Both the position numbers and the translations under genes were made by a program. Below, piece after piece: positions 8,123 through 47,956 of a DNA stretch of 64,000 nucleotides. The notes under the pieces were generated by a model. That model worked only from the letters and a program-made list of their open reading frames with translations, made no database searches and was not told the DNA's origin. Positions within the stretch are counted from its first letter, which is position 1. The number at the start of each line of letters is the position of its first letter. The DNA is from an uncultured Eubacteriaceae bacterium (GTDB taxonomy: Bacteria > Bacillota > Clostridia > Eubacteriales > UBA1433): positions 27,552 to 91,551 of the forward strand of contig CAZOOZ010000008.1 in assembly GCA_964581565.1 (NCBI GenBank), in the 5' to 3' direction.

Positions 8123-9364
8123 TTATATTATTTCTTCTCTGCAAATAGGCATGGTCATACATCTGGGACCGCCACGCCCTCGCACAAGCTCTGAACCTTT
8201 GATTCTGATTACTTTTATATCATGTTTTTCAAGGACTTCATTTGATATTTCGTTTCTGTCGTAAGCGATGACGACGCCGGGAGATAACACAAAGGTGTTC
8301 GTGCTGTCGTTCCATTGTTCTCTCGCGGCAATGATCGGGTCTCCGCCGCCGCTTTTGATTAGATCGATATGTTTCGTATTCAGCGCATCTTGCAGTGTTG
8401 ATTTAAGACTGTCCATTCTTGTAAAATGTATTTGATTATTTTTTCCGCGCGTCATTTTTATAATATTCATGTGTTCGTCAATAGAGGGATATATTGTAAA
8501 TTTATCATAATCCACCATCGTGCATACCGTATCCAAATGCATAAAAGCCCGGATTTTCGGAAGCTGCACTGCATACACATCTTGTATCCGAGAATTTTGA
8601 TAAAATAAATTATTGGCAAGGATTTGTGCGGCGGAGGCATCTGTGCGTTGACTGAGCCCTACGAGCATAGATGCAGAACTCGTCACTAAAATATCACCGC
8701 CTTCTATCGTGCTGCTTTGAATATTATTGTCATACCATAGCGGCACATTATTTTTATTAAAAAACTCATGATGTTTATAAATTGCACGCAGGATGCGGCT
8801 CTCACGTTTTCGTATGGGGTTTTTCATTGTATGGATGGAAAGCCCGTTTTCAATGGCTGCCGCACCGTCGCGCATAAAATACATATTCGGAAGAGGTGGC
8901 ATATAAAACATATACATCTGCGGCATATAATCACTGAGCACTTCTTGCTTTTTTATTTTGGCAACATCTGTGATACTCAGTCCTTTGATTAAGCATTTTG
9001 CCGTCTCTGAAGCATTTAAATCAAATAAATAATCTAAAATACATTGTTCTATATAGTCACATCCAAGGATATCTTTTTCAATGATTTGATGTAAGATATC
9101 TTTCTTTGTTTTCTTATCTTCTAATATATCTGCAAGAAGATCTTTAATATAAATTACATTGGCGCCGAATGTTATGATCACAGAGGCAAAATCATCGTGT
9201 TCTTGCTGCATGCCTTTCAAATATGGGATATCATCAAAAAGTACCATTTCCAAGTTTTGCGGCACAATATTATGCAGCTCTTCATCGGGCCTGTGTAAGA
9301 TAACAGTTTTCAGTTTTGAGATTTCGCTTGTAATATTGATATTGCTGCGCATCATGAAATTCAT
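8123..9364 (-). CDS. arcA: Arginine deiminase
   Basis: [37 protein letters not shown] (catalytic Cys). Confidence 0.95.
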
Positions 9365-9558
9365 CCTCTCATATTTTTATTATTATATAACATTTATAAC
9401 GTTTCATAAATAATTTAATAAAATATCAAGAAATTTATAGTATTCTTAACTAAAAATGTATATTCAAAAAGTTCGTGTACAAAAAATCGTCAAAGATTTA
9501 TAATAAATTATCAAGTATTTGTAAAAAATCATTCTATGCTTTGGGAAAAGGAGAGACG

Positions 9559-10281
9559 ATGGAAGAAGTGATTTGTATTGAAAATATTTCAAAAAAATAC
9601 GGGAAAAAAACTGTTTTAAACAAGGTCAGTTTAACGATTCCAAAAGGGAGAATCTATGGTATCATCGGGCCGTCTGGTGCAGGAAAGACAACGCTCGTTA
9701 AAATGATGGTAGGTATGGAGAAGGCAGACAGCGGAAGCATTACGGTACTTGGATGTGAGATGCCTGATTTACCGGTACTGCAAAATATTGGCTACATGTC
9801 TCAGTCGGATGCGCTGTATGCCGATCTCACAGGCGGAGAGAACCTGAAATTCTTTGCATTGTTGTTTAAAATCCGTGGCGCAAAACAAAAGCAGCGTATT
9901 GCCTACTGTGCCGATGTGGTAGATTTAAGCGATGAATTAAAGAAAAAAGTATCTGCGTATTCAGGAGGCATGCGTCGTCGCCTTGCACTTGCGGTTGCCC
10001 TGGTTCAGGATCCCGAGTTACTTATTTTGGATGAGCCTACAGTAGGCATTGATCCACAGCTTCGCGCCAGTATTTGGGATGAGCTACACAGGCTTCGGGA
10101 TGAAGAAGGGAAAACCATTATCATCACCACGCATGTCATGGACGAAGCTGAAAAGTGTGACCGGCTTGCAATGATCCGTGAAGGCATACTGATCGCAGAC
10201 GGTTCGCCCGGTGAACTCATAGCCGCATATGGTGTAGAAAAGCTGGAAGACGTATTCTTAAAAGCGGGGAGGAAGCAGTGA
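9559..10281 (+). CDS. ABC-2 type exporter ATP-binding protein
   Basis: GPSGAGKT, YSGGM, ILDEPT; start at 9559 after AAGGAG. Confidence 0.92.
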   Translation: MEEVICIENISKKYGKKTVLNKVSLTIPKGRIYGIIGPSGAGKTTLVKMMVGMEKADSGSITVLGCEMPDLPVLQNIGYMSQSDALYADLTGGENLKFFALLFKIRGAKQKQRIAYCADVVDLSDELKKKVSAYSGGMRRRLALAVALVQDPELLILDEPTVGIDPQLRASIWDELHRLRDEEGKTIIITTHVMDEAEKCDRLAMIREGILIADGSPGELIAAYGVEKLEDVFLKAGRKQ

Positions 10282-11789: not shown

Positions 11790-12569
11790 ATGAATATGGA
11801 AATGGCTTTGCCTGTATTTAACGTGTTATGGACAGGCGGTTGGGATTCCACGTATAGAATTCTGTACTTGTCCAGACACGAAGTTGAATTGCGCCCGCAT
11901 TATATTTATTATGAAAACAGAAGATCGCGCGATATAGAAATCAAGACAATGGAAGAAATATCAAAAGATATTCGAAAGGATCCAAAAACAAAATGCACGC
12001 TGCATCCCTTAATAATCACTCAATTTAAAGATATCGAAACAAATGATGATATCACACAAGCTTTTAAAAGAATCCGGCAGGAAGTGTTGATAGGATTTCA
12101 ATACGAGTATTTAGCTCGCTACGCAAACACATTGAATAATCTCGAAATAGGTGTGGAGCAGGGCGGCCTGGCCGAGCAAATGATGAATACCTTCGGAGAG
12201 ATGATAAAGATAAAAGATGAATTAAATCTTGAATATTGGAAAGTGAACGAAAAAAATTCCAGTGAGGATTTAAATAAAGTATTCGGATTGTTTAAATATC
12301 CACTTTACTCTATGACAAAACTCGATATGAAAGAAAAAGCCATAGAGCTTGGATTTATAGATTCTATGTATAAGACATGGTTTTGTCATTTTCCGCGAAA
12401 AGGCAGGCCATGCGGATGTTGCTTTCCATGTAATTTTACGATTGAGGACGGTCTGCCCGAAAGGCTTCCCAATGATGCGCTCAGAAGACATAAAATAGAC
12501 AAGAAATTCGCAGATAAGAAAAGCTATCAGTTGTATAAAAAATACAGAAGAAAATATCTGAATTATTAA
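11790..12569 (+). CDS. QueC-like (7-cyano-7-deazaguanine synthase family) PP-loop ATPase
   Basis: VLWTGGWDST PP-loop and C-terminal TWFC-x8-CGCCFPC Zn-site pattern. Confidence 0.7.
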   Translation: MNMEMALPVFNVLWTGGWDSTYRILYLSRHEVELRPHYIYYENRRSRDIEIKTMEEISKDIRKDPKTKCTLHPLIITQFKDIETNDDITQAFKRIRQEVLIGFQYEYLARYANTLNNLEIGVEQGGLAEQMMNTFGEMIKIKDELNLEYWKVNEKNSSEDLNKVFGLFKYPLYSMTKLDMKEKAIELGFIDSMYKTWFCHFPRKGRPCGCCFPCNFTIEDGLPERLPNDALRRHKIDKKFADKKSYQLYKKYRRKYLNY

Positions 12570-12597
12570 AAACAGAGCAGATTTTACTGCTCTGTTT
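12570..12597. terminator. Bidirectional terminator
   Basis: AAACAGAGCAG...CTGCTCTGTTT between convergent genes. Confidence 0.8.
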
Positions 12598-12620
12598 ATC
12601 TTATTATGTTTATTGGATTT

Positions 12621-13895
12621 TTACAGTTTATTGAGTGCTTGATCAAAATCACAGATAATGTCGTCTATGTTTTCAATACCAACGGATACACGGATCAATT
12701 CAGGCAGTACGCCGGAGGCAATCTGTTGCTGCTCGGTAAGCTGTCTATGTGTGGTGCTTGCGGGATGCAGCACGCCGGTGCGCACATCGCCTAAGTGTAC
12801 AACAAGAGAGGTCAGTTTCAAATGCTTTGTAAATTCTTTTCCTGCCGCAGCACCGCCTTTGGGGCCGAAGGTGAGAATGCCACCCGCCCCTTTAGGCAGA
12901 TATTTTTCTGCGAGGTCATAATTTTTATGGCTTTTGAGTTTGGGGTAGGTGACCCAGTCCACTTTTGGATGTGATTGCAAAAACTCTGCCAGTTTTAAAG
13001 CATTTTCGCTGTGGCGTTCCATACGCAGATGAAGTGTTTCAAGTCCCAGATGTGCCAAGAATGCGTTAAACGGGCTCATAGTGACACCATAATCACGCAG
13101 CAGTTGCACGCGCACTTTTGTGATATAGGCAGCTTCTTTGAATTCTTTTGTATACTGCATACCGTGATAGCTGGCATCAGGCTCTGTCAGCTCGGGATAT
13201 TTTCCGTTTTCCCAGTTAAATTTTCCGCTGTCGATCACAATGCCGCCAAGGCTCACGGCGTGCCCGTCGGTATATTTGGATGTGGAATGCACAATAACAT
13301 CAGCTCCGTAGTCAAAAGCTCGGCATAAATAAGGAGTTGCCAGTGTGTTATCGACAATGAAAGGGATATCAGCTTGACGGGCGATTTTTTTAAAGACTTC
13401 AAAGTTCAGCACATTGAGTCCGGGGTTTCCGATCGTCTCACCAAAAAGCACGCGCGTATTAGGACGAATAGCATCATAGATTTCCGTTTCATTATCGGGG
13501 TCTACAAACGTGACATCAATGCCGATTTTTTTCAACGTAACAGCAAACAGATTATAGGTGCCGCCGTATATTGTAGAAGAAGATACAACATGATCGCCGG
13601 CTTTGCATATGTTTAATAAAGAAAGAAAGCTTGCCGCTTGGCCCGACGAAGTCGCTACGGCGCCTACACCACCTTCCAGTAAACTCATCTTGCCTTCCAG
13701 TGCCGATACGGTGGGGTTACCGAGACGTGTATACATATAGCCGTCACTTTTCAAATCAAACAGGTCTGCTACATCATCCGCTTCATAATAACGGTAAGTT
13801 GTGCTTTGTGCGATCGGCAGCACATGAGGCTCACCCGATGCGGGATGGTAAGAACCCTGTACACAGTAGGTTTCAATGTTATATTTGTCTTGCAA
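12621..13895 (-). CDS. metY: O-acetylhomoserine sulfhydrylase / aminocarboxypropyltransferase
   Basis: YTRLGNPT, SGQAA, VHSTSKY (PLP Lys), HPASTTHRQL; TTG start after AAAGGAG; downstream of S-box. Confidence 0.9.
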   Translation of the reverse strand: MQDKYNIETYCVQGSYHPASGEPHVLPIAQSTTYRYYEADDVADLFDLKSDGYMYTRLGNPTVSALEGKMSLLEGGVGAVATSSGQAASFLSLLNICKAGDHVVSSSTIYGGTYNLFAVTLKKIGIDVTFVDPDNETEIYDAIRPNTRVLFGETIGNPGLNVLNFEVFKKIARQADIPFIVDNTLATPYLCRAFDYGADVIVHSTSKYTDGHAVSLGGIVIDSGKFNWENGKYPELTEPDASYHGMQYTKEFKEAAYITKVRVQLLRDYGVTMSPFNAFLAHLGLETLHLRMERHSENALKLAEFLQSHPKVDWVTYPKLKSHKNYDLAEKYLPKGAGGILTFGPKGGAAAGKEFTKHLKLTSLVVHLGDVRTGVLHPASTTHRQLTEQQQIASGVLPELIRVSVGIENIDDIICDFDQALNKL

Positions 13896-13913
13896 AAAAA
13901 TCACTCCTTTTAT

Positions 13914-13941
13914 AAAAAAAGCCGCTTTCATAAGAAGCGGC
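13914..13941 (-). terminator. Riboswitch expression-platform terminator
   Basis: Minus strand GCCGCTTC...AAAGCGGC-TTTTTTT between aptamer and metY RBS. Confidence 0.8.
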
Positions 13942-13960
13942 AAATAATATTTACTTACTC

Positions 13961-14062
13961 TTCTTATCTTTCAGGATTTTTCCTGCTGGAATTAGCACGT
14001 TACTGTAAACAGTTGTTGCCGGGCTTCGTAGGGCCAGTCCCTCCGCCTCTCTGGATAAGAAT
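13961..14062 (-). ncRNA. SAM-I (S-box) riboswitch
   Basis: Minus strand TTCTTATCCAGAGAGGCGGAGGGACTGGCCCTACGAAGCCCGGCAAC...GTGCTAATTCC...GAAAGATAAGAA, canonical S-box core. Confidence 0.96.
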
Positions 14063-14127
14063 ATTAAATTTTATATATCATAACGTAACAAACAAAGCGT
14101 GTCAAGACATTTGATAATATTTATCGA

Positions 14128-15234
14128 TTAAATTGTGATTAGTTCGTACTCTTTGTTTCCAAGACCCATCTTTACAGCATGGTTAATGGTAACCATCCAG
14201 TCTGTCTCGGGACTGACACGGGTGAAATGATCATGATGACGGCAAATGCTTTTTTCAAGCAGGCTTCCGGCCATCACAGGTTGATTGTTGACGGCATCCG
14301 CACAGGCTTTGTCGAGTGCAACCGGATCAAAAGAGGCAAACATGCCAACGTCAGGTACAATCGGAATATCATTTTCGCTATGACAATCGCAATACGGAGA
14401 GATATCGATCGCCAGACTGATATGAAAATGCGGGCGGCCATGCAGCACTGCCCACGCATATTCGGCCATTTTTTTATCCAGTATGTCGTTCGATTCATCC
14501 GATGCAGGGCGAATTGCATCCATAGGGCATACGCCGATACAGCGGCCGCAACCCACACATTTATTATGATCAATCGACGCTTTGCCTTCTGTGACGGTAA
14601 TAGCGCTTTGCGCACATTCTTTCGTACACATACCGCAGCCCACACATCGTCTTTGAGAAATGCGGGGTTTACCGCTGCTGTGCATTTCCATTTTGCCTGC
14701 TCTGGAGCCGCAGCCCATACCGATATTTTTAATAGCACCGCCGAATCCGGTGAGTTCATGCCCTTTAAAATGACTTAGTGAGATGATGATATCGGCATCC
14801 ATAATGGCTCTGCCGATTTTGGCTTCTTTGATATAATCGCCTCCTTGCACGTTAACGAGTATATCGTCGGTACCCTTGAGCCCGTCGCCGATAATGACAT
14901 GACAGCCTGTAGAGAAAGGTGAAAAACCATTTAAATAAGCGGTGCTGATATGTTCGAGTGCGTCTTTTCTGGCGCCGACATATAGGGTATTACAGTCTGT
15001 GAGAAATGGTTTGCCGCCTCGTCCTTTTACAGCTTCAACAACTGTTTTCGCATAATTGGGTCGAAGATATGATAAGTTGCCGGGCTCGCCAAAATGGATT
15101 TTAATCGCCGCATATTTTTTATTGAAATCGATCGTATCTATACCTGCTGCTATCATCAGCCGACATAGTTTTTGTTGCAAATTTTCTGTATGAGTGGCAT
15201 GCATGTTTGTAAAATACACCTTTGACTTTTCCAT
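14128..15234 (-). CDS. DUF362-domain 2x[4Fe-4S] protein
   Basis: KIHFGEPGN, SHFKGH...FGGAIKNIGMG, two CxxCxxCxxxC motifs, CDC, DPVALD. Confidence 0.85.
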   Translation of the reverse strand: MEKSKVYFTNMHATHTENLQQKLCRLMIAAGIDTIDFNKKYAAIKIHFGEPGNLSYLRPNYAKTVVEAVKGRGGKPFLTDCNTLYVGARKDALEHISTAYLNGFSPFSTGCHVIIGDGLKGTDDILVNVQGGDYIKEAKIGRAIMDADIIISLSHFKGHELTGFGGAIKNIGMGCGSRAGKMEMHSSGKPRISQRRCVGCGMCTKECAQSAITVTEGKASIDHNKCVGCGRCIGVCPMDAIRPASDESNDILDKKMAEYAWAVLHGRPHFHISLAIDISPYCDCHSENDIPIVPDVGMFASFDPVALDKACADAVNNQPVMAGSLLEKSICRHHDHFTRVSPETDWMVTINHAVKMGLGNKEYELITI

Positions 15235-38913: not shown

Positions 38914-38998
38914 TATGTTGTATCAAATAATATAAATGCATGAAGTATAGGATAATATAAAGAAATTAGAAAGCAATAAGTAACCAAAGTTGTAATTA

Positions 38999-39036
38999 CA
39001 TGAAGCAAGTGTCTTTAAAGAGGCACTTGCTTCATG
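38999..39036. terminator. Strong hairpin after ABC pair
   Basis: CATGAAGCAAGTGTCT...AGGCACTTGCTTCATG. Confidence 0.6.
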
Positions 39037-39181
39037 GAGAGCACGATTAAAGTTCATTACACAAATATGGAAGATATTTATCGACATCCGTTCTTTTTGC
39101 ATACTATAAATTCTTTAAATGTAATAATAATTTATAAAAATGTAAGATGTATATGAAAAAGGAAGAAAAATCCGTATAAAC

Positions 39182-39214
39182 AAAAAGCAGACCGACATAT
39201 CGTCAGCCTGTTTT
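39182..39214 (-). terminator. sod terminator (homologous to 41911-41943)
   Basis: Minus strand AAAACAGGCTGACGATATGTCGGTCTGCTTTTT. Confidence 0.6.
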
Positions 39215-39256
39215 CGTTTTTATGAACATCCACTGGGGAGAGTGTGTCTATAGCAT

Positions 39257-39904
39257 TTACGCAAAGCCCTTTGACATATTTGCCATGCAATCCTTATAAA
39301 GCTCTCCGGCTTGTTTCCAATTTGCTACATTGAACCAATCATCGATATAGGCTGCCCGCTCATTGTAATGTTTTAAATAATACGCATGTTCCCAAACATC
39401 AATGGCCGCAACGGGACAAAGATTCTGAACAATAGGCGTATTTTGATTGGCCGATGTGACAATTTTGAGCTTCCCGCTCTGGTCCACGACAAGCCATGCG
39501 TATCCCGAGCCGAACACAGATAGTGCCTGCTTTTTAAACGCGTCGTAAAAGTCTTCGACAGACCCAAAATCCTGTACGATTGCATTATAAAGCATCCCGG
39601 CCTGTGAACGTATCTCCAAATTAGACATGCCGTTAAAATAGAAGATGTGGTTATAAACTCCGCCGCCGTTATTAATGACAGACTGCCGGATGGCTACCGG
39701 AAGTCTGTCCGCGTTATAGATCAACTCTTCAAGCGACCAGTTGTGCAGATCCGGATAGTCTTTCAATGCGCTATTGAGATTGTTGACATATGTTTGCAGG
39801 TGCCGGTCGTGATGTAAATGCATCGTTTTTGTATCGATATACGGTTCAAGTGCATCGTAAGCATAAGGAAGGGGTGGATTTACAAATGGATAATGCTCAT
39901 TCAT
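39257..39904 (-). CDS. sod: Fe/Mn superoxide dismutase
   Basis: LPYAYDALEPYID, HHDRH, NNGGG..NH, FGSGYAWL, DVWEHAYY. Confidence 0.95.
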   Translation of the reverse strand: MNEHYPFVNPPLPYAYDALEPYIDTKTMHLHHDRHLQTYVNNLNSALKDYPDLHNWSLEELIYNADRLPVAIRQSVINNGGGVYNHIFYFNGMSNLEIRSQAGMLYNAIVQDFGSVEDFYDAFKKQALSVFGSGYAWLVVDQSGKLKIVTSANQNTPIVQNLCPVAAIDVWEHAYYLKHYNERAAYIDDWFNVANWKQAGELYKDCMANMSKGFA

Positions 39905-40369
39905 ACAATAGCCTCCTGTTTTGTCTTATAATATATAGCATATTCGACCATGTTGAAGATGTTAATCCGGTTTCGGTCAAAATGAAAACCGTTGAGAGCT
40001 ATTTCAATATTTCGTGATGACAGAATCTTCTTGTCGTTGGGGTTAAGTATTGGATGGTTATTTGTGTTTAATAGTTTTAAAACTCTATTCAACATGCCTA
40101 ACCGATACATAAAAATTATCTTTCATGTGGTTTGTTTATCATGATGTCGTGCGGTTAATTGACTTTATTATAGTCATGTGCGATTCATAATAGAAAAAAT
40201 AAGCCGACTCTTGATAAATTTGTATCATATTCATCCTGTTATGGCTTGCATATGTTGCAGCAGAATGATTCCATCAAAAATTTATTCATACTTCAATATT
40301 TTCTGGAGTATGTCAGCAACGCAATCTTGTAAAATTTAATGCCTTTATGGTATGCAATTTCTTTCTCCG

Positions 40370-40425
40370 TTGTATTTTTTACTGAAAAGTGGTAAAATAT
40401 ATCACAAGGTTAGAATTAGCTAACT
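40370..40425 (+). promoter_or_regulatory. sigmaA promoter with GGTTAG-N6-CTAACT operator (site 3)
   Basis: TTGTAT-17-TAAAAT then GGTTAGAATTAGCTAACT at 40408-40425. Confidence 0.62.
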
Positions 40426-40526
40426 ACAATCTGTTTTTTGCGGCAGTGATTAATTCAGTCTGTGAAAAATTATTTTTTTCTATATGCTATGCGTTGAATA
40501 AAATTTTATTAAAGGAAGATAACATC

Positions 40527-41741
40527 ATGTATTGTGTAAGACAAATTACTCCCCAAGTATTCTGGGTAGGAGGAAACGACCGGAGACTTGCGCTGTTTGA
40601 GAATATGTTTCCTCTGCCGAACGGCATCGCCTATAATTCGTATCTAATCATGGATGAAAAGGTGGCGCTGATGGATACAGTTGATTCTTCGATCACTCGC
40701 CAGTTTTTGGAAAATATCGAGCATGTGCTCGATGGCAGAGCCATCGACTATCTTATCGTGAACCACATGGAGCCGGACCATTGTGCCAACATTGAGGAAC
40801 TCTGCCGGCGGTATCCTGAAATGAAGATTGTCGGCAATCAAAAAACCTTTCAGATGATCCGCCAATTTTATGATTTCGATATTGAATACAGCACCTTGGA
40901 GGTGCATGAAAAAGATACCCTAAATCTTGGCGTGTATACTCTGCGTTTCTTTTTTGCTCCCATGGTTCACTGGCCGGAGGTAATGTTTAGCTATGAAGAA
41001 CACAAAGGGATTCTTTTTTCGGCCGATGCGTTTGGCTCCTTTAGCGCTCTTCCCGGTGATCTTTTTGCCGACGAATTGGATTTTGAAGGGGCTTTTCTCG
41101 ACGAGGCGCGCCGTTACTATACCAATATCGTTGGTCGATACGGCGCACAGGTACAAGCGGCACTAAAAAAGTTGTCTGGTACGGAAATCCGTTTACTTTG
41201 TCCCTTGCATGGCCCGATCTGGCGCAAAAATTTAAATTATATTTTGTCTAAATATGACCTGTGGAGCCGGTATCAACCGGAAAAGCGAGGTGTTGTTGTA
41301 GCCTATGCTTCCATGTACGGCAATACGGAGAATGCGGTGACTGTGATTGCGAATCATTTGGCGGAAAAGGGCGTGCAGGATATGCGGGTATATGACATTT
41401 CCAAGACACACGCTTCGTATGTCATTGCAGATGCGTTCAAATACAGCCATTTGATACTCGCCGCACCCACCTATAATTCCGGACTCTATTTCGGTATGGA
41501 AGCGCTCTTGAGGGATATGACGGTACTCAACCTGCAAAATCGGAAGGTCGCCTTGGTTGGAAACGGCTCCTGGGCACCGGCGTCGCAAACCATCATGCAG
41601 AAGATGATTGGTGAAATGAAGTATATGGAACTGCTCACGCCGCCGCTGGTTCTGCGTTCATCGCTGAAGACTGTTCAGATGGCAGAACTTTTAAAATTTG
41701 TGGATACCGTAAGCGAGTCCATCTTGCGCCCGATAGTTTAA
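40527..41741 (+). CDS. fprA: Flavodiiron protein (FprA/A-type flavoprotein)
   Basis: YNSYL, NHMEPDH, MVHWPE, FSADAFG, PLHGP, YASMYGNT flavodoxin domain. Confidence 0.92.
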   Translation: MYCVRQITPQVFWVGGNDRRLALFENMFPLPNGIAYNSYLIMDEKVALMDTVDSSITRQFLENIEHVLDGRAIDYLIVNHMEPDHCANIEELCRRYPEMKIVGNQKTFQMIRQFYDFDIEYSTLEVHEKDTLNLGVYTLRFFFAPMVHWPEVMFSYEEHKGILFSADAFGSFSALPGDLFADELDFEGAFLDEARRYYTNIVGRYGAQVQAALKKLSGTEIRLLCPLHGPIWRKNLNYILSKYDLWSRYQPEKRGVVVAYASMYGNTENAVTVIANHLAEKGVQDMRVYDISKTHASYVIADAFKYSHLILAAPTYNSGLYFGMEALLRDMTVLNLQNRKVALVGNGSWAPASQTIMQKMIGEMKYMELLTPPLVLRSSLKTVQMAELLKFVDTVSESILRPIV

Positions 41742-41910
41742 TCTGAGTATAGTCCTTGCTAAACATGTCAATTATACTGCATTAATATTATAATGTATGC
41801 TTCTGACTAACATATGCTTTAGCCATTATCAGTCAATATCGTATCACAATACCATAATTTAATTATAAAAAGAAAAGAAAAACATGTCATAAGAGGAATT
41901 CAGAGCAAAT

Positions 41911-41943
41911 AAAAACAGGTCGACGATAGGTCGGCCTGTTTTT
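41911..41943 (+). terminator. fprA terminator (homologous to 39182-39214)
   Basis: AAAAACAGGTCGACGATAGGTCGGCCTGTTTTT. Confidence 0.7.
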
Positions 41944-41989
41944 ATCGTTATAAAATATTTAAGGTTCATATAGACTCGTACGAGTGTTC

Positions 41990-42091
41990 AGGACAAACTC
42001 GAAAACCCTGCATAAAATAAAGTTTTTAGCAGCAGGCAAACGGATATTACGGTGCTGTATGTGTGCTAAACAAACCGATAAACTGGTATTT
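41990..42091. repeat. Repeat unit A (58-bp core + 24-bp gene-proximal motif)
   Basis: Core 41990-42047 matches 42671-42728 at 53/58; tail AAACAAACCGATAAACTGGTATTT. Confidence 0.88.
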
Positions 42092-42095
42092 GGAA

Positions 42096-42578
42096 TTATA
42101 AGTGACTGGTTACAGCAATTACAAACTGTTCAACACCCTGCTCTATAATATCAATTAGCGAAGCCTGATCCTCAAAATCCGGAGCGGATGTCAACGTGCA
42201 TTCTATAATGGCGTCTTGATTATTCTCTTCATGAAACATAACAGTATTATTTGAAATAATGCTGTTAACAACAGTTTCATATCTCTTTAATATTTCCCGG
42301 TTCCGCGCGGATAGCCATACTTCGAAGTCGCCCTTTTCGTGTAAGTAGACTACGGCGATTTTAAGTCCCTTATCTTTCAATTGTTTTGTATTCAATGAAA
42401 AGTAAGACATGTCCATATAACCTTGGTAAACATTTCCTGCGTCGTAATCCGGATATTTTTTAGTGAAATTTGTACGCAATTTGCCAATAAAATCTATGAT
42501 CCCTTTATATGCGGCTTGTATTTCTCCCTGCTGTAAACAGAAAGTGTAATCGCTTATAAGCTGATTCAGAGTTTTCAT
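42096..42578 (-). CDS. Conserved hypothetical protein (DUF7000-like)
   Basis: 160-aa ORF, GGAGG RBS, YQGYMDMSYF...KIAVVYLHE..FEVWL. Confidence 0.7.
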   Translation of the reverse strand: MKTLNQLISDYTFCLQQGEIQAAYKGIIDFIGKLRTNFTKKYPDYDAGNVYQGYMDMSYFSLNTKQLKDKGLKIAVVYLHEKGDFEVWLSARNREILKRYETVVNSIISNNTVMFHEENNQDAIIECTLTSAPDFEDQASLIDIIEQGVEQFVIAVTSHL

Positions 42579-42654
42579 AAATAGCCTCCGTGAATTCTTA
42601 TTTACCTAAGCGTTATGCTGTTTTGTCCTTCTGAATGACCGAGGTGTTTGAAGG

Positions 42655-42770
42655 TGGTGCGAGATTCATAAGGACAAACTCAAAAAACCTGCATAGAATA
42701 AAGTCTTTGGCAGCAGGCAAACGGATATGAGAGCACGATATTCGTAAAATAAACCGGTAAACTGAAGTTT
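42655..42770. repeat. Repeat unit B preceded by 10-bp copy of tRNA-Leu 3' end
   Basis: TGGTGCGAGA (42655-64) = 47869-78; core 42671-42728; tail AAATAAACCGGTAAACTGAAGTTT. Confidence 0.85.
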
Positions 42771-43035
42771 ATTTCTTCTTAATTTTATGAGCCGTAATGA
42801 TCGTATGGCTATACGCATTTATCGTTATTTTGCAATCGTCTATACTTACGTACCAATTTTTCCCTGTTCTGATTATAACCGCATTAGGACTTTGTATTTT
42901 TTCTCTGCACCAATTAACAACATCATCAGTATCTAAAGAAAGATTTCTCTTTATGCGCATAATTCCTAAATCAGTTGTATGTAGCTTATGTAAGTCTAAA
43001 ATCAGTTTATCTTTATTACTATCATTACTCTGTAT
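42769..43035 (-). CDS. DUF3781-family protein, apparent ATA start or lost start codon
   Basis: Frame extends upstream of annotated Met as KLHTTDLGIMRIKRNL; GKNWY, TIITAH; no ATG/GTG/TTG upstream in frame. Confidence 0.65.
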   Translation of the reverse strand: MQSNDSNKDKLILDLHKLHTTDLGIMRIKRNLSLDTDDVVNWCREKIQSPNAVIIRTGKNWYVSIDDCKITINAYSHTIITAHKIKKK

Positions 43036-43200
43036 TAACCTTCTTAATTTCTGTTTGCCTGCATATCATACCAGGGACAGTCTCTCCGTTCTACTATAAC
43101 GATTATTCGCTAACAGCAAGTCATGTGCGCCATATTGCGGGTAAGGAAGTACCATTGGATTTGCACAAATAAAGCACGTATTTATGCAAGTTTTAAAAAG

Positions 43201-43243
43201 TCAAAAATGAGGGATAGGGTAAAACCTTATTCTCCGCTTTTTG
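43201..43243. repeat. REP-like hairpin with partial copy at 47168-47200
   Basis: TCAAAAATGAGGGATAGGGT-AAA-ACCTTATTCTCCGCTTTTTGA; ACCTTATTCCTCCGTTTTTGA recurs after the GyrI gene. Confidence 0.5.
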
Positions 43244-43273
43244 AGGTTGATAGCGTGACGAGATGAGAAATAC

Positions 43274-43480
43274 TTAAAAATAAAACAGCTCTTCGAATTT
43301 TTTATCCAATGCCACACAAAGAATCAATGCCAGTCTCGCGGTGGGATTAAATTGTCCTGTCTCAATTGAACTGATCGTGTTTCGCGAAACCCCAATCATT
43401 TCAGCAAGCTGACTTTGGGATAATTGTTTTTCGGCTCGAACTTCCTTTAACCTGTTTTTTAATACCAATTCGTTATCCAT
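43274..43480 (-). CDS. XRE-family HTH regulator
   Basis: LKNRLKEVR...LSQSQLAEMIGVSRNTISSIETGQFNPT; real start MDNEL. Confidence 0.88.
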   Translation of the reverse strand: MDNELVLKNRLKEVRAEKQLSQSQLAEMIGVSRNTISSIETGQFNPTARLALILCVALDKKFEELFYF

Positions 43481-43499
43481 TGTATTATCCTGAAGTGGG

Positions 43500-43672
43500 C
43501 ATGATACGTTAATCAAAAATATAACTCCGGCAATGATGCCCATCACTGTCCCAATTAATTGGGCGTTTTCCTTTTGTAAACCGATTTTTTGTAACTTTCA
43601 AATGCGAAATAAGTCGAGAACAATGCAAAAATCGTATGATTGTTTAAATCTTTAATAGATTCTTTATTCATA
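43500..43672 (-). pseudogene. Degraded paralog of the upstream membrane protein
   Basis: MNKESIKD...YFAFESYKK, frameshift in A-run, then RFTKENAQLIGTVMGIIAGVIFLIN. Confidence 0.5.
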
Positions 43673-43685
43673 AGATATCCCTGCT

Positions 43686-43994
43686 TCAAGCGATAAAATA
43701 ACCAGCAAATACTATTACACCAGTAATACCGCAGGCTATTCCCTGTATCAGAAATTGCCTCTTTTTCGTCTTGATATAAGAGTATAAACCTGATGCTGAC
43801 ATATAGCCAAACAGAATAACTCCGAATTCATAAAATGGTTTTCCCTGAAGTGCTTTAATCACACTAAAAACAACACACAGAACCACAACAACGATTCCGG
43901 CAACTCCAAAACCTTTTATTAATTCGCTGCGTTGCATTTCATCCAAATAAGAGTTTTCATTTTTGCTTTTTTCTAAAATCTCTTCTTTTTTCAT
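43686..43994 (-). CDS. DUF6442-like 3-TM membrane protein
   Basis: MKKEEILEKSKNEN..DE then three hydrophobic segments; typical XRE partner. Confidence 0.72.
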   Translation of the reverse strand: MKKEEILEKSKNENSYLDEMQRSELIKGFGVAGIVVVVLCVVFSVIKALQGKPFYEFGVILFGYMSASGLYSYIKTKKRQFLIQGIACGITGVIVFAGYFIA

Positions 43995-44031
43995 TGGATA
44001 CTCCTTTGACAGGTGTTCTAATCAAAATTAT

Positions 44032-44079
44032 ACCATGCCAAGTATACTTGTCAACAGTTTTAAAGCAAACCTGGCATGG
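44032..44079. promoter_or_regulatory. Inverted repeat / putative XRE operator
   Basis: ACCATGCCAAGT...ACCTGGCATGGT with internal CAAGTATACTTG palindrome over a minus-strand TTGACA. Confidence 0.5.
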
Positions 44080-44292
44080 TAAAGAAGATATAAAAGTAAA
44101 TACTTGCTAAATTTTATATTCTAATCTAAATACAAAACAAATCTAAACCCTTCGCCAATCGAAAAGAATGGTGAGCGGTTTGTATTATGTGGGTTTCTGA
44201 ATTTATAAAATCCGAGTATAAGGGTCTTATGCCCTATTACACGTTCTTGATGTTCATCTCTTGGCAGGGATGGTAAATTTGACCTGATATAT

Positions 44293-45045
44293 TTATCTGC
44301 TAATGAATTGCTCAATGACCTTCGCCGCTGCTTTTGCATTGCTTAAAATAGCCGGATGACCACCGGAATTGAATAAATGAACAGCTCCGTGTCTTATAAT
44401 ATTTGCCATTTTTCGGTATTCATCCGCAAGGTCTTTGCGTACCATTGTATCCTCACGGCTTCCCATGAATAAAATTGGCGTTTGCAAAGAAGATAAAGGC
44501 TTGTGAAAAAGCGGCTTTTTCAGAGTTGCAAAACAGAGCAAAGCCTGTGTATCGGCATCTACAACTGCTTCCCAGTCCGCACCCTGGCACCATTCATAAA
44601 ATTGTTTTGCCTGAATGTCTTTTTTCGCTGCATTTCTTTCGGCAAGCAAGTCCTCGGCGAAGCCGCTATGCAGGGTTCTTCCGTCAAAACTATCGGCAAC
44701 AACCTTATTGACTAGTTCGGGGCGTTCTAAAGCGACGTTGACAGCAGCCCATGCCCCGCCGCTTGTCCCAACCAAATTCACTTGAGTATATCCTAAATGA
44801 TCTATTAATGCTATGGTTTGCATTGCTTCTTCATACCATAATTCCGACGGAATATCTTCAATTCTATCCGAATGGCCATTACCCAAGAAGTCAATTAAAA
44901 TGACCCTGAAATTTTCCTGATACAAAGGAATCAGTGTCTCAAACATTTTGGAAGATGCGGTATTGCCGTGCAAGAAAATCAGCGGGGTTTTTGAGCCGAT
45001 TTCCTGATAAAATATATTTTTATTATGATAGTTAAAATATGACAT
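44293..45045 (-). CDS. Alpha/beta hydrolase
   Basis: FLHGNT, DFLGNGHS, GTSGG nucleophile elbow, GGHP. Confidence 0.88.
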   Translation of the reverse strand: MSYFNYHNKNIFYQEIGSKTPLIFLHGNTASSKMFETLIPLYQENFRVILIDFLGNGHSDRIEDIPSELWYEEAMQTIALIDHLGYTQVNLVGTSGGAWAAVNVALERPELVNKVVADSFDGRTLHSGFAEDLLAERNAAKKDIQAKQFYEWCQGADWEAVVDADTQALLCFATLKKPLFHKPLSSLQTPILFMGSREDTMVRKDLADEYRKMANIIRHGAVHLFNSGGHPAILSNAKAAAKVIEQFISR

Positions 45046-45564
45046 ATTTGCCTCCTAATCTGTTTTTTGATATCTTTTTTGATTAGTAAGGCATATTGAT
45101 AATTGCCTTACTATTAACTCAAAACATTCCAAATGCCCATTGCAAAATTCTCCTTTAAATTAGATTGGTTTAAAGCAAATTTATTATATATTATATACCA
45201 GCAGCATGCAAGAACGTGAGCAAAACGTCTGCATTCCACCATGTTGGGATCCAGTAATATCAATGGTTTGTAGATGATCGGCAGGCGGTATTTATAGATT
45301 CGTTTGAGGTTGGGAGCCTTATTTGTGGCAATAATTGATTTTATATCTTTTTAAAATTTGAAAGCTCATTTTATTGGCTATTTATCTCTTTAATAGCATC
45401 TTAATTCTCAATATAAAGAATTACCTCATCGTAAGCGGAAATTTGAGTTTCTTCGATATCGTCCATTACTATTTTGTATATCTGTGAAATTATCATTTAA
45501 GATAAAACGGACAGGTCTGGTTATATAGCTTTGCAATTATCGTAACGCAATAAAATATTGCCTA

Positions 45565-45624
45565 TTGACTGCTCAAACTATAATGAGTATAATTAAGCAT
45601 ACTTATCATACTTATCATACTTAT
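45565..45624 (+). promoter_or_regulatory. sigmaA promoter followed by three perfect 9-bp direct repeats
   Basis: TTGACT-17-TATAAT; CATACTTAT x3 at 45598-45624. Confidence 0.75.
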
Positions 45625-45638
45625 TATGGAGGTTGATA

Positions 45639-45863
45639 ATGAAAAACTCGAAAGGCAAATACGCTTGGACTGCGAAAGTCGGAGAGAAAGGACAAATCGT
45701 TATACCTAAAGAGGCACGAGAAGTCTTTGATATCAATCCCGGGGATACGCTGCTCCTTCTGGGCGATGAGTCCCAGGGCATTGCAATCGTTAAAAACGAT
45801 ATGTTTATTCACTTTGCCGAGGCGGTCATGAAAGCGCAAAATCAGGAGGAAGAGGACAAATGA
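45639..45863 (+). CDS. AbrB/MazE/SpoVT-family DNA-binding protein
   Basis: AKVGEKGQIVIPKEAREVFDINPGD. Confidence 0.9.
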   Translation: MKNSKGKYAWTAKVGEKGQIVIPKEAREVFDINPGDTLLLLGDESQGIAIVKNDMFIHFAEAVMKAQNQEEEDK

Positions 45864-46969
45864 GAAGGGAATTACCCGGCGCGGATGGCATGAAGCCGGA
45901 AAAGAGAAGAAGAAAAAAAGTCTTAAGAATCATACTGACAGCGTTCGCAATCCTGATATGTATGCTCATTGTGCTTGCTGCAGTATATGTGTATAACAAT
46001 CTTAATTATGACAAGGTTCCATTCCGGAAGACGATGAAAGCGGGTTATGAGGAAAAGCAGGTATCTTTAGATGATCGAACAGTTTTGAATTATGTGGAAG
46101 GACCCGATAATGGCTCTTCCCTCTTGCTGATCCACGGACAAGAAGCGGCGTGGGGAATATATACAAAGGTACTACCGGAATTATCAAAATATTATCATGT
46201 CTATGCGGTGGATTGCCACGGGCATGGAAAATCCAGCAAAGATTCGGAAAAATACAGCGCGCAGGCGATGGGAGAGGATTTTGTCTGGTTTATTGAAAAT
46301 GTGATTGGTGAACCGGCGGTGGTTTCGGGACACTCATCCGGGGGACTGCTTGCGGTATGGCTTGCCGCCAATTCTTCTGAGAATGTATTGGGTGTTGTCC
46401 TGGAGGATCCGCCTCTCTTCTCAACGGAGGCGTCCCGATGCGATAAAACATATGCGCAGGTGGATACATTTCAGGTCTGTCATTCATTTTTGAACCAGGA
46501 TGAGGAGGATGACTTTGCGCTGTATTACATCGAAAACTGCTATTGGATTAATTATTTTGGAGATGCGAAAGAAAATATCATTCAATATGCCGTATCCTAC
46601 CGGGAAAAACATCCAGGAGAGAGATTGAAAATATTTTTTTTCCCACCTTCTATTACCGGGATATTTTATTTCATGGACGACTACGATCCCAGATTTGGCG
46701 ATACATTCTATGATTGCTCATGGATGGAAGGCTTTGGTCACGCCGAGGCCCTGTCAAAGATTAACTGCCCATCCGTCCTGATCCATACGAATTGGCAGTA
46801 TGATGAGAACGGTATCCTCATGGGGGCTATGAACGGTGAGGATGCCGAGCGAGCGCATTCACTGATAGAAAATAACGTGCTTATCAATGTTGACTCCGGC
46901 CACTCCTTCAGTTGGGAAAAACCGGATGATTTTATTGAGATCATGATCGATTTTCTCAATGAGATTTAA
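45860..46969 (+). CDS. Membrane-anchored alpha/beta hydrolase
   Basis: N-terminal TM, LIHGQ, DCHGHGKS, GHSSGG, DSGH; ATGA-coupled to AbrB gene. Confidence 0.87.
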   Translation: MRRELPGADGMKPEKRRRKKVLRIILTAFAILICMLIVLAAVYVYNNLNYDKVPFRKTMKAGYEEKQVSLDDRTVLNYVEGPDNGSSLLLIHGQEAAWGIYTKVLPELSKYYHVYAVDCHGHGKSSKDSEKYSAQAMGEDFVWFIENVIGEPAVVSGHSSGGLLAVWLAANSSENVLGVVLEDPPLFSTEASRCDKTYAQVDTFQVCHSFLNQDEEDDFALYYIENCYWINYFGDAKENIIQYAVSYREKHPGERLKIFFFPPSITGIFYFMDDYDPRFGDTFYDCSWMEGFGHAEALSKINCPSVLIHTNWQYDENGILMGAMNGEDAERAHSLIENNVLINVDSGHSFSWEKPDDFIEIMIDFLNEI

Positions 46970-47202
46970 TAAATTACGGGATACAAAGGGGATGGTACGC
47001 TAAGAGAAGCAGGGACTAGGACACAAAGATTTTATGTTAGAGAACCAACCCGGTTAATCTCCTTATCACTTGGAAGCGGACCGTATGAATTTATGTATTA
47101 AGTTCTCTCATTTCTAAAATTCAGTGATAAATTGGGGGGGATATTTATGTGTGAAAAATCCCAGTGTAAGGGGTTTATACCTTATTCCTCCGTTTTTGAT
47201 TT

Positions 47203-47688
47203 CTATCTTTTGACAGGCCGGGTAACTTTCTTTACGGGCATTACAATTTTTGTAAGCAATTCGCTTTCGGGAAAATCGGGTCCGTTGTAATAAAACTCAT
47301 AAGATGTTCCGACGGCTTTATAGCCGTTATCAGTAATGTATGCTGCCATTTCATCGTATACAGATCCCACTTCGCTGTAAGAGCCTCTGTACATGCAGAA
47401 AACAATATACCCTTCGGGAATGAAGCCTGGCTTTATATCTTCTTTTTGTGCAAAAGAGTCAGATACGGTAAAGCCTATTTCAACATCAAGATTCTGCATG
47501 TCCAAGTTATGATAGCATACAAACGGTATATCTGTCATAGTCTCGCCGAGTTCATCAAGATATGACGCGATTTTTGCATAGCTTTGACCGATTATTTGCG
47601 GCAGATCCTGAACTTTTGTCGTTGTGCGAATTGTTAAAGTAGGTTGATGCAGTTGTTTTAAGATTGCGATATCGGACATTTTCGGCAT
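47203..47688 (-). CDS. GyrI-like small-molecule-binding protein
   Basis: QPTLTIR, DVEIGF, YRGSYSE..VY, YEFYYN.P. Confidence 0.82.
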   Translation of the reverse strand: MPKMSDIAILKQLHQPTLTIRTTTKVQDLPQIIGQSYAKIASYLDELGETMTDIPFVCYHNLDMQNLDVEIGFTVSDSFAQKEDIKPGFIPEGYIVFCMYRGSYSEVGSVYDEMAAYITDNGYKAVGTSYEFYYNGPDFPESELLTKIVMPVKKVTRPVKR

Positions 47689-47868
47689 TTTTTAACACTC
47701 CTTAATTTTAGATATCAGCAAGAATAAAATAATAAATTGTCGGGATTGGTGCAAATTATTTTTGATATATTATGATTATATATTAAAGAAAAATAAATTC
47801 AATTAATAGTTATTAAATAAAAAAACAGAGTGATGCATTACTTTATTTTTATGAATATTTTAAAAAAA

Positions 47869-47956
<88 letters not shown>

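Follow-up and report, generated by a model that had tools for sequence, protein, structure and literature searches.

Tandem accretion has been described for cis-mobilizable elements (CIMEs), which lack an integrase, keep both attL and attR and line up one behind another at the 3' end of their target; further elements integrate at an att site of a resident one and, in the part of the review used here, most of the tandem partners are decayed (Guedon et al. 2017, PMC5704250). We analysed a repeated element in a 64,000-nucleotide stretch of DNA from an uncultured Eubacteriaceae bacterium, hereafter the window, where it is present at 41990-42047 and 42671-42728, each time behind a small minus-strand gene. 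The repeat is quite probably the attachment-site scar of Clostridia elements which insert at tRNA 3' ends, mostly those of tRNA-Leu, and use a large serine recombinase (LSR) resembling TnpX. The island type as such is known; its form is here unusually miniature and integron-like, and most likely results from an LSR which the window's own genome no longer encodes.

Like the CIME tandems, the units of the window lack a recombinase, are stacked at the 3' end of a target gene and are partly decayed. They differ by the recombinase family, which is here that of serine recombinases, and by their size, many units being single genes of 0.5-1.5 kb. In the part of the review used here, tRNA 3' ends are targets of tyrosine integrases, whereas serine integrative mobilizable elements (IMEs) disrupt genes or show a low specificity (PMC5704250). 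Another precedent is given by the ssrA islands of Dehalococcoides (DsiB), which, in the available part of the article, lie in tandem downstream of a tRNA-like gene, are bounded by 20-bp direct repeats of its 3' end, carry a reverse-strand LSR gene beside attL with a ParB-domain gene adjoining, and include islands without an integration module that were suggested to be cis-mobilizable (McMurdie et al. 2011, PMC3146451). The same part of the article discusses composite islands of the staphylococcal cassette chromosome (SCC) as a comparison. The ssrA islands differ from ours, as far as this part of the article describes them, by their tmRNA target, their phylum, their length of kilobases to tens of kilobases and the pairing of DsiB with a small recombinase, DsiA, and by having neither a 78-nt block at the right end nor a terminator-promoter left end.

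In the array of the window, as will be seen, single genes are separated by repeats of one site. SCC and pseudo-SCC elements (CcrAB/CcrC) also use LSRs, insert at the 3' end of a conserved gene and form arrays split by repeated integration sites, and many of their units have no recombinase and depend on one in trans. They differ in that the target is rlmH and not a tRNA, the units are large and the recombinases are not known to carry a DUF4368 tail. TnpX combines Resolvase, Recombinase, Zn-ribbon and DUF4368 domains, and our system resembles Tn4451/Tn4453 (TnpX, TnpV) by this LSR architecture and by a TnpV gene beside the right end of one relative. The Tn4451 integrase works in both directions without a recombination directionality factor, and has a low target specificity with a GA crossover, according to the part of the review used here (PMC5704250). 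The former property would allow recombination at hybrid sites; as to the latter, the elements described here differ by their specificity for tRNA 3' ends and by building arrays.

As in integrons, co-oriented accessory genes, unrelated and mostly one per unit, each have a recombination site behind them, and the cargo includes Cass2/GyrI-like proteins of the type "integron-associated effector binding protein". Unlike in integrons, no IntI was found, the sites show no attC consensus or fold and resemble double-stranded dyads, the units come with a terminator and promoter of their own, and a tRNA gene takes the place of attI as anchor. Integrons are reportedly rare or absent in this phylum. Searching listings and abstracts of the open literature, with subscription journals outside its scope, we came across no account of this family of Clostridia elements or its block. 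New are the host group, the tRNA-Leu, tRNA-Pro and tRNA-Met targets for a TnpX-like enzyme, the miniature one-gene units, and the conserved right-end block combined with a terminator-promoter left end. A previous reading of the window, made from its sequence only, had noticed the repeats; the details new with respect to it are the tRNA-Leu(CAG) anchor, the fit to an LSR of the TnpX/DUF4368 type as opposed to a tyrosine IntI, and the published precedents.

Anatomy and distribution of the element

A repeat search of the window showed that the two copies share 53 of 58 bases (91% identity), exactly as the sequence-only reading had it, and alignment extended a weaker similarity for about 100-125 nt to each side of this 58-bp core. 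Each half of the core occurs twice in the window, far above the 0.00 and 0.01 occurrences expected from 100 shuffles. Both copies start about 10-20 nt from the stop codon of a minus-strand gene, and Pfam confirmed that these two genes are unrelated, belonging to DUF7000 (42096-42578) and DUF3781 (42769-42960). The element is longer than the roughly 100 bp of the earlier description and includes a 5' extension, a block and a degenerate inverted arm. The features of the array and of its anchor are given below, where P is the right-end half-site, P' the left-end half-site, G000 the window's own genome and G006 a genome of the same genus.

41857-42085, minus strand: module A, with a 5' extension (42052-42085), a block (41976-42051) whose end, ..ACTCGTACGA, is degenerate, a likewise degenerate P' arm (41935-41962), a terminator at 41909-41943 and, at 41857-41870, the remnant of a TATAAT-type promoter
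42096-42617, minus strand: DUF7000 cargo unit, with the gene at 42096-42578 and its own 5' untranslated region (UTR) at 42594-42617, common to G006
42618-42764, minus strand: module B, with a 5' extension (42734-42764), a block of about 78 nt (42655-42731) that closes with the P half-site ...TTTGTCCTTATGAATCTCGCACCA (42655-42678) and, after a spacer of 13 nt, a P' arm in degenerate form (42618-42641); the long-form terminator and promoter have been deleted
42769-42960, minus strand: DUF3781 cargo gene (Pfam; translation and alignment with G006)
43045-43062, plus strand: inverted 18-nt copy of the block start in the DUF3781 5' UTR, matching at 16 of 18 bases and conserved in G006
47841-47859, minus strand: possible arm-like remnant, AATATTCATAAAAATAAAG, directly after the tRNA, with a weak resemblance
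47869-47956, minus strand: tRNA-Leu(CAG), upstream of the array on the same strand, anchor of the island (attB side)

The DUF7000 5' UTR begins immediately after the truncated arm of module B (..GGACAAAACAG|CATAACGC..), and the DUF7000 piece starts 41 nt upstream of the ATG in both G000 and G006. The second gene had previously been read as 42769-43035; its start is not at 43035, as a 10-nt deletion with respect to the congener removed the ATG in G000 and left a 63-aa frame beginning at an internal Met. In this part of the DUF3781 unit (9000-9130 in the G006 locus L021, 43040-43100 in the window), both congeners keep the inverted 18-nt copy of the block start, and the promoter region upstream also shows a 10-nt deletion in G000. 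An inverted copy of the motif had been proposed before the ribosome-binding site of each gene. It exists for DUF3781 (43045-43062); for DUF7000, the proposed copy at 42592-42606 was rejected, being the gene's own conserved 5' UTR. Neither are such inverted copies a general property of the units: among the 37 element-bearing stretches defined below, one was found with at most 2 mismatches and two with at most 3, the shuffles giving 0.0 and 0.1.

For collecting relatives (L-numbers denote scanned loci), a pattern derived from the alignment was scanned over contigs, one genome per species, and gave 70 loci, of which 46 were matched by a profile built from ten copies; the remainder were chance matches, for example in records titled Methanobrevibacter, Nautiliaceae or Hymenobacter. 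Eight overlapping loci (L029, L037-L039, L048, L054, L055 and L076) and matches below 35 bits were left out before counting, so that the final set, L021 and the window included, comprises 62 copies in 37 stretches. A scan of metagenomes yielded 14 loci, all 14 with block matches. The four loci from a pattern scan of viral contigs all proved to be one unrelated coding sequence matched by chance; BLAST of a long-form module against plasmids and phages gave no match.

The block is about 78 nt long, is sharp at both edges and has, in the sense of the gene, the consensus GTAATATTCGyTTGCTTGaTGCCrAAAaCCTTTATTyTATGCGGGTTTCCGAGTTTGTCCTTATGAACACTCGnACCA. It terminates in GAACACTCGnACCA or TTTGTCCTTATGAACACTCGnACCA, a mimic of a tRNA 3' end in which ..CACTCGnACCA resembles the 3' strand of the acceptor stem plus CCA. 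In the long form of the element, the ACCA is followed by a spacer of 4-26 nt, the inverted arm CGAGTGTTCATAAGGACAAA and then a terminator with compensatory changes in its stem, AACAGGCyGAC...GTCGGCCTGTTTTTG, and a subset of the long-form copies continues with an extended -10 promoter (TGCTATAATTTAAT) and then a shared start of the 5' UTR. In the short form, an unrelated intrinsic terminator comes directly after the block, and about half of all copies miss the second arm. The two arms, of about 20 nt each, constitute a palindromic core around ..ACCA..; those of L047 are perfect over 22 nt around CCAC, and those of L031, L042 and L150 enclose an 8-nt spacer. These four loci have the form of an LSR att site (about 40-50 bp, inverted half-sites, short centre), whereas the copies of the window are degenerate. 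Two direct repeats, GTTTGyyTkATG, stand 43 nt apart in the conserved portion of the block. A second right-end family, which we call block-2 (..ATTGATATTACTGGATTTCTCCAAGTCCTATAATTTCACTCGGACCA), is joined to the same arm in L026, L030 and L042, where it ends with ..CACTCGGACCA before the arm. Units running from a P' arm to a block and containing no recombinase are present in the window (with degenerate arms), G006, L047 and others.

Neither BLAST nor the nhmmer profile detected a third copy in the 2,285,018 bases of G000, and from this genome alone, simple local duplication could not be excluded. G006 carries eight co-oriented copies within 11.5 kb plus a partial one, all in one locus at the same place as the array of the window. 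Each lies in an intergenic gap, the genes of this array including a 106-aa open reading frame (ORF), an S-adenosylmethionine methyltransferase, DUF3781, a GNAT acetyltransferase, DUF7000, a metallo-beta-lactamase (MBL)-fold protein, a TetR/ABC-2 operon and an alpha/beta hydrolase. No match to the element was found in the other five genomes of the family that were searched, and a dispersal of the type of miniature inverted-repeat transposable elements or repetitive extragenic palindromes is not observed, the copies being confined to one locus in both G000 (2) and G006 (8 and the partial one). Further afield, the records have titles such as Oscillospiraceae, Christensenellales, Lachnospiraceae, Peptococcaceae, Syntrophomonadaceae, Oscillibacter, Pygmaiobacter and Caproiciproducens, among others. 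All copies within a stretch have the same orientation in 37 of 37 stretches, 11 of which contain several, and the 25 spacings between copies range from 527 to 4759 nt (median 1084). By a crude rule, a same-strand ORF of at least 50 aa ends at most 170 nt upstream of 55 of the 62 copies. The upstream genes are very diverse and the gene downstream of a copy is often convergent; the cargo comprises GNAT proteins, methyltransferases, hydrolases, chloramphenicol acetyltransferase (CAT), efflux regulators, Cass2/GyrI proteins and defence genes.

Comparing the congeners defined the limits of the island. It occupies 38969-47868 in the window (8.9 kb) and 18.3 kb in G006, between flanks common to both genomes: ABC-transporter genes up to 38968 (89% identity) on one side, and on the other the tRNA-Leu and, upstream of it, a gene for an rRNA adenine dimethylase. 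Inside, the two genomes have four pieces in common, namely a GyrI-like gene (92%), a 250-aa hydrolase gene (83%), DUF3781 with a partial module (93%) and DUF7000 with its module (88%). The content of the island thus varies between the two genomes, and the DUF3781 and DUF7000 units stand in swapped order, an arrangement which deletion cannot produce. In the other four genomes of the genus, the tRNA is present with no block or arm downstream of it (over 15 kb in three of these genomes and over 1.7 kb in G004).

tRNA genes and serine recombinases at the junctions

The island of the window starts at the 3' end of tRNA-Leu(CAG), and across the arrays the unit boundaries take up the end of the target, the blocks finishing in ..CTCGnACCA; both are properties of tandem accretion. 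The last 10 nt of this tRNA, TCTCGCACCA, recur at the end of the block of module B, and all six genomes of the genus have kept this tRNA, which was called by ARAGORN, together with the gene upstream of it. A same-strand tRNA precedes the first block in 15 of the 37 stretches (12 Leu, 2 Pro and 1 Met), and the window and G006, whose tRNA-Leu is located in L098, add two. An arm without a block was found 3-14 nt past the CCA of an ARAGORN-called tRNA-Leu in at least eight loci (L028, L031, L035, L045, L046, L047, L083 and L088), the anticodons being CAG, CAA, TAG, GAG and TAA; such tallies of orphan arms are minimum numbers. Behind tRNA-like 3' fragments, arms were seen in at least L021, L022, L041 and L086, and in G006 a tRNA-Leu 3' fragment of about 40 nt plus an arm precedes the hydrolase unit. 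In L103 (2955-3282), we observed an arm hairpin abutting a sequence like a tRNA 3' fragment that ARAGORN did not call, and an intact tRNA-Leu(TAG) with its own terminator about 190 nt beyond.

The recurrent neighbour of the arrays is a TnpX-like LSR with Resolvase, Recombinase, Zn-ribbon and DUF4368 domains. In L150, a full LSR of 574 aa (Resolvase, Recombinase, Zn_ribbon_recom and DUF4368) ends about 50 nt from a P-P' junction which carries the exact end of the block, and L148 holds, about 8 kb upstream from a full block and on the other strand, a four-domain LSR; a whole element is arranged in this way, and its left end here falls outside the locus. LSR remnants with the 3' end towards the junction are present in L042, L060, L061, L073 and L086; their order is tRNA-Leu, LSR C-terminal fragment and block in L061, and arm, chimeric ORF without catalytic domain and block in L042. 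The L042 protein (12344-14437, 698 aa) was tried as an integron-like divergent integrase and rejected as such: it is a chimera, whose N-terminus matches ParB-like genes from regions of integrative and conjugative elements (ICEs; L075, L074 and L082) and whose C-terminus is a serine recombinase devoid of the Resolvase domain.

We used residues 215-698 of this protein to search 399 genomes of the class and obtained matches in 168 of them at E<=1e-40. A tRNA adjoins the LSR gene at its 3' end in 23 of the 30 best loci (12 Leu, 7 Pro, 2 Met, 1 Gln and 1 Ala), and in 16 of the 30 the motif GAGTGTTCATAA, with at most 2 mismatches, starts 4 nt past the CCA; this motif is the first half of the hairpin terminator. 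Since the arm is the same behind different tRNAs, it is a part of the element (P') rather than of the tRNA trailer. In another genome of the class, G287, an element of 10.2 kb was found with its two ends: its attL reads tRNA-Leu..CCGCACCA TAT CGAGTGTTCATAACGG, and its attR, 10.2 kb away, reads CCGTTATGAACAATCG CACCA and is followed by a terminator. Compared by reading, the attR half-site and the end of the block agree at 17 of 21 positions. The element contains the LSR, a ParB_N protein, ABC transporters, a GNAT protein, a MerR regulator and TnpV, and thereby shows the same LSR-ParB pairing as the Dehalococcoides ssrA islands. In this locus (L133, 10195-10563), the TnpV-family gene lies directly inside the right end and the ParB_N gene adjoins the recombinase; both proteins are candidate accessory or directionality factors.

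As the sequence-only reading had noted, the window encodes no recombinase: its contig has no Phage_integrase match, and no Resolvase-domain gene was detected anywhere in the G000 genome, which hence has no serine recombinase. With no such enzyme and with partly decayed sites, the array would be inert, or mobile only if a recombinase were provided in trans.

Proposed mechanism and competing explanations

The evidence suggests the following scenario for the LSR elements. The left end, P', of a unit consists of the inverted arm CGAGTGTTCATAAGGACAAA, the terminator and often the extended -10 promoter, and the right end, P, of the block of about 78 nt, the two arms together making the dyad of an attP-like core around ..ACCA; the crossover would lie in or next to the CCA. 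Insertion into a tRNA gene would create the order tRNA-P' ... P-trailer, and the next element would insert at the tRNA-proximal hybrid junction. Internal junctions should then be of the type P-P' (block plus arm) and the far end should be P plus the native trailer (block plus unrelated terminator), which matches the long and the short forms. The sites would be cut by this LSR clade, and sub-kilobase pieces may move as units, which the swapped order in the congeners and the unit shared by L033 and L068 (see below) suggest; afterwards the units would decay, as happened to the recombinases found as remnants. The DUF3781 and DUF7000 units are recombinase-less mini-elements, either CIME-like or cassette-like, and the G000 array is decaying, given its degenerate arms, the lost DUF3781 start and a 22-nt relic of block-2.

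Several observations weigh against this scenario. In 20 of the 37 stretches examined there is no tRNA, and several of these stretches adjoin ICE-type genes such as ArdA and ParB. Many spacers measure 19-26 nt, with an apparent 11-nt duplication (CGAATGACCCT), and exceed the length expected of a simple dyad; past a normal half-site, a further 55 nt or so of the block are strongly conserved across orders, for which the model gives no reason. No intact LSR exists in G000 and none near the G006 array, the closest LSR of G006 (44% identity) lying on another contig with no att-like sequence within about 8 kb. L150 has a tRNA-Leu 2 kb upstream that lacks an arm, and its block is reduced to a fragment of 48 nt, located behind the gene of a class II aminoacyl-tRNA synthetase. 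Five LSR-bearing genomes gave no BLAST match to the full module, and the wider LSR clade shares the half-site of about 20 nt only and not the 78-nt block. Finally, canonical serine integrases do not target attL or attR, and the building of arrays therefore needs an assumed tolerance like that of TnpX or Ccr, the latter recombinases accepting hybrid sites.

The last claim of the sequence-only reading, i.e., site-specific cassettes served by a trans-acting recombinase and not matching attC, gained support from five comparative points: the repeats at the unit boundaries, the palindromic core, the arm at tRNA and recombinase genes, the reshuffling of units and the lack of a recombinase nearby. How far the cassettes are alive is a separate matter. 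They could be part of a living integron-like platform, in which the sub-kilobase units are true cassettes excised as P-P' circles and re-inserted by the LSR of an ICE or IME acting in trans; we hold this for possible and rather doubtful. In its favour, the smallest units measure 527-570 nt and contain a single small ORF (e.g., in L047), the same unit occupies different array positions in two congeners, and one unit is common to L033 and L068, titled Lachnospiraceae and Christensenellaceae, with 87.7% identity over 1078 nt and a homology which ends at ACCA. Moreover, the C/G alleles of the arms (GTCCTT/GTCGTT vs AAGGAC/AACGAC) are not always matched across a junction, as is expected if the two arms come from different neighbouring units, and the cargo is of the integron type (GNAT, methyltransferase, hydrolases, Cass2/GyrI and defence genes). 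Conversely, the LSR remnants within the units of five loci indicate that decay of larger elements does happen, neither circular junctions nor empty-site polymorphisms were observed, and G000 has no LSR while its sites and its DUF3781 gene are decaying. The general statement, that Clostridia possess a serine-recombinase gene-capture system in which sub-kilobase, single-gene cassettes (attP-like dyad, terminator, promoter and accessory 78-nt block) leave as circles and are stacked behind tRNA-Leu, tRNA-Pro or tRNA-Met by TnpX-like recombinases that ICEs or IMEs provide in trans, is equally tentative.

Homologous recombination could have acted alone, an ordinary intergenic terminator-promoter module having spread horizontally and been shuffled in a RecA-dependent manner with no dedicated recombinase. 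The blocks, 75-90% identical over 80-190 nt, are long enough for it, most arrays have no recombinase nearby, and the copy W_B is closer to W_A than the orthologue G6_3 is to W_A, which suggests conversion. We nevertheless judge this explanation unlikely, as it accounts neither for the sharp ACCA boundary, the mimicry of tRNA 3' ends and the arm after the CCA in many genomes and tRNA types, nor for the LSR gene at a junction and the attL/attR pair of G287. A role at the RNA level, as a 3' UTR element, a leader or a small RNA with its own terminator, agrees with the terminator after nearly every block, its compensated stems and the extended -10 promoter of the long form. It is very improbable in view of the other results: no Rfam match was obtained for the window region, L021 or four array loci (the only hits, at E 0.96 and E 0.22, lie far below the gathering score), single-sequence folds had z-scores from -0.56 to +0.63, and RNAalifold found no consensus structure on either strand of 56 aligned blocks. 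Furthermore, the flanking genes are functionally unrelated, and the links with tRNAs and LSRs would not be accounted for. A small peptide was also considered and dismissed, the block having no conserved frame and indels that are not multiples of three, and a scan of the block for sigma-70 promoters gave only weak candidates on the antisense strand, AGGACA-17-TAAAAT/TAGAAT, scoring 9/12. Conservation of a sequence without a fold, an Rfam match or a reading frame points to recognition of DNA by a protein.

A classical integron, or a different tyrosine-recombinase system whose sites fold like attC, would explain co-oriented single-gene units each followed by a repeat; a hairpin could form between the two arms, and the two 9-nt inverted repeats around an 8-nt spacer in L047 also resemble the core site of a tyrosine recombinase. 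This is nonetheless a very slim prospect: Phage_integrase (PF00589) matches are absent from the array contigs of G000 and G006, where they occur on other contigs only, and from about 20 kb around the arrays in G007 and G008 (the genomes of L075 and L068, respectively), and a crude motif screen of 313 ORFs from 41 loci revealed no tyrosine recombinase. In addition, the consensus contains no GTTRRRY core, the second arm is lacking from about half of the copies, and the recurrent neighbour is a serine recombinase. Last, a functionless local duplication, which the sequence-only reading had named as the scenario that would refute it, fits the number of copies in G000, only two; its probability has become negligible with the eight copies of G006 and with many further loci, titled as several Clostridia orders, in which the element stands beside dozens of unrelated genes.

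If Clostridia do have a serine-recombinase gene-capture system, gut and digester anaerobes of several orders would share, in the tRNA gene, a library from which accessory, resistance and defence genes can be exchanged. Mobility of the small units would mean a second, mechanistically independent route to the integron solution, and would help to explain how GNAT, hydrolase, CAT, efflux-regulator and defence genes move between anaerobe orders. If these units are fossils only, the locus still shows cleanly how elements accrete in tandem at a tRNA gene and decay there, and its annotation is corrected. On the practical side, the P/P' motif beside tRNA genes is a simple marker for annotating such islands, and site-specific LSRs with short, now predictable att sites are of interest as tools for genome engineering.

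Other contents of the island and side observations

Besides the two units with their modules, the island of the window contains the following features.

38969-41856, genes on both strands: G000-specific distal segment (Pfam, BLAST), the island ending at 38968 where homology to G006 resumes; it holds a Fe/Mn superoxide dismutase gene (39257-39904, minus strand) and a gene for a flavodiiron-type MBL-flavodoxin protein (40389-41741, plus strand)
43274-43994, minus strand: XRE-type helix-turn-helix gene (43274-43546) and DUF6442 gene (43686-43994), assigned by Pfam; G000-specific island content with no counterpart in the G006 island
44293-45045, minus strand: alpha/beta-hydrolase cargo gene of 250 aa (Pfam), 83% identical to that of G006, where it lies between the tRNA-Leu 3' fragment plus arm and the block E8
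45249-45270, minus strand: relic of block-2, its first 22 nt, recognized by sequence comparison
45633-46969, plus strand: inverted G000-specific segment containing a MazE/AbrB-like gene (45633-45863) and the gene of an alpha/beta hydrolase of 369 aa (45860-46969), both assigned by Pfam; no counterpart in the G006 island
47203-47688, minus strand: GyrI-like small-molecule-binding gene (PF06445), the first cargo behind the tRNA, 92% identical to that of G006 and shifted in position

The dismutase and the flavodiiron-type protein make up a G000-specific insert of 3 kb at the distal end of the island, and oxygen-defence genes may be island cargo here. In G006 (L021, 18566-19946), the genes of a phosphate acetyl/butyryl transferase and of a 4'-phosphopantetheinyl transferase stand between the tRNA-Leu and the tRNA fragment; BLAST at E 1e-10 found no counterpart of these two genes in G000.

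Two observations were made outside the arrays. In L057, a chromosome record titled Robertmurraya sp., tandem units of about 52 nt fill the region from about 9400 to 10020, each with the palindrome TTGTCCTCAT...GGTTCATGAGGACAAAG; this array was found only through its resemblance to the arm motif and could be a repeat array of another kind. In G007, a trio of tyrosine recombinase genes lying next to each other (416, 328 and 363 aa) occurs in two copies, which score identically, at C1:399814-402283 and 2072608-2075077, the nearer one about 20-30 kb from the array, in a layout which we take to be that of the "recombinase in trio" elements.

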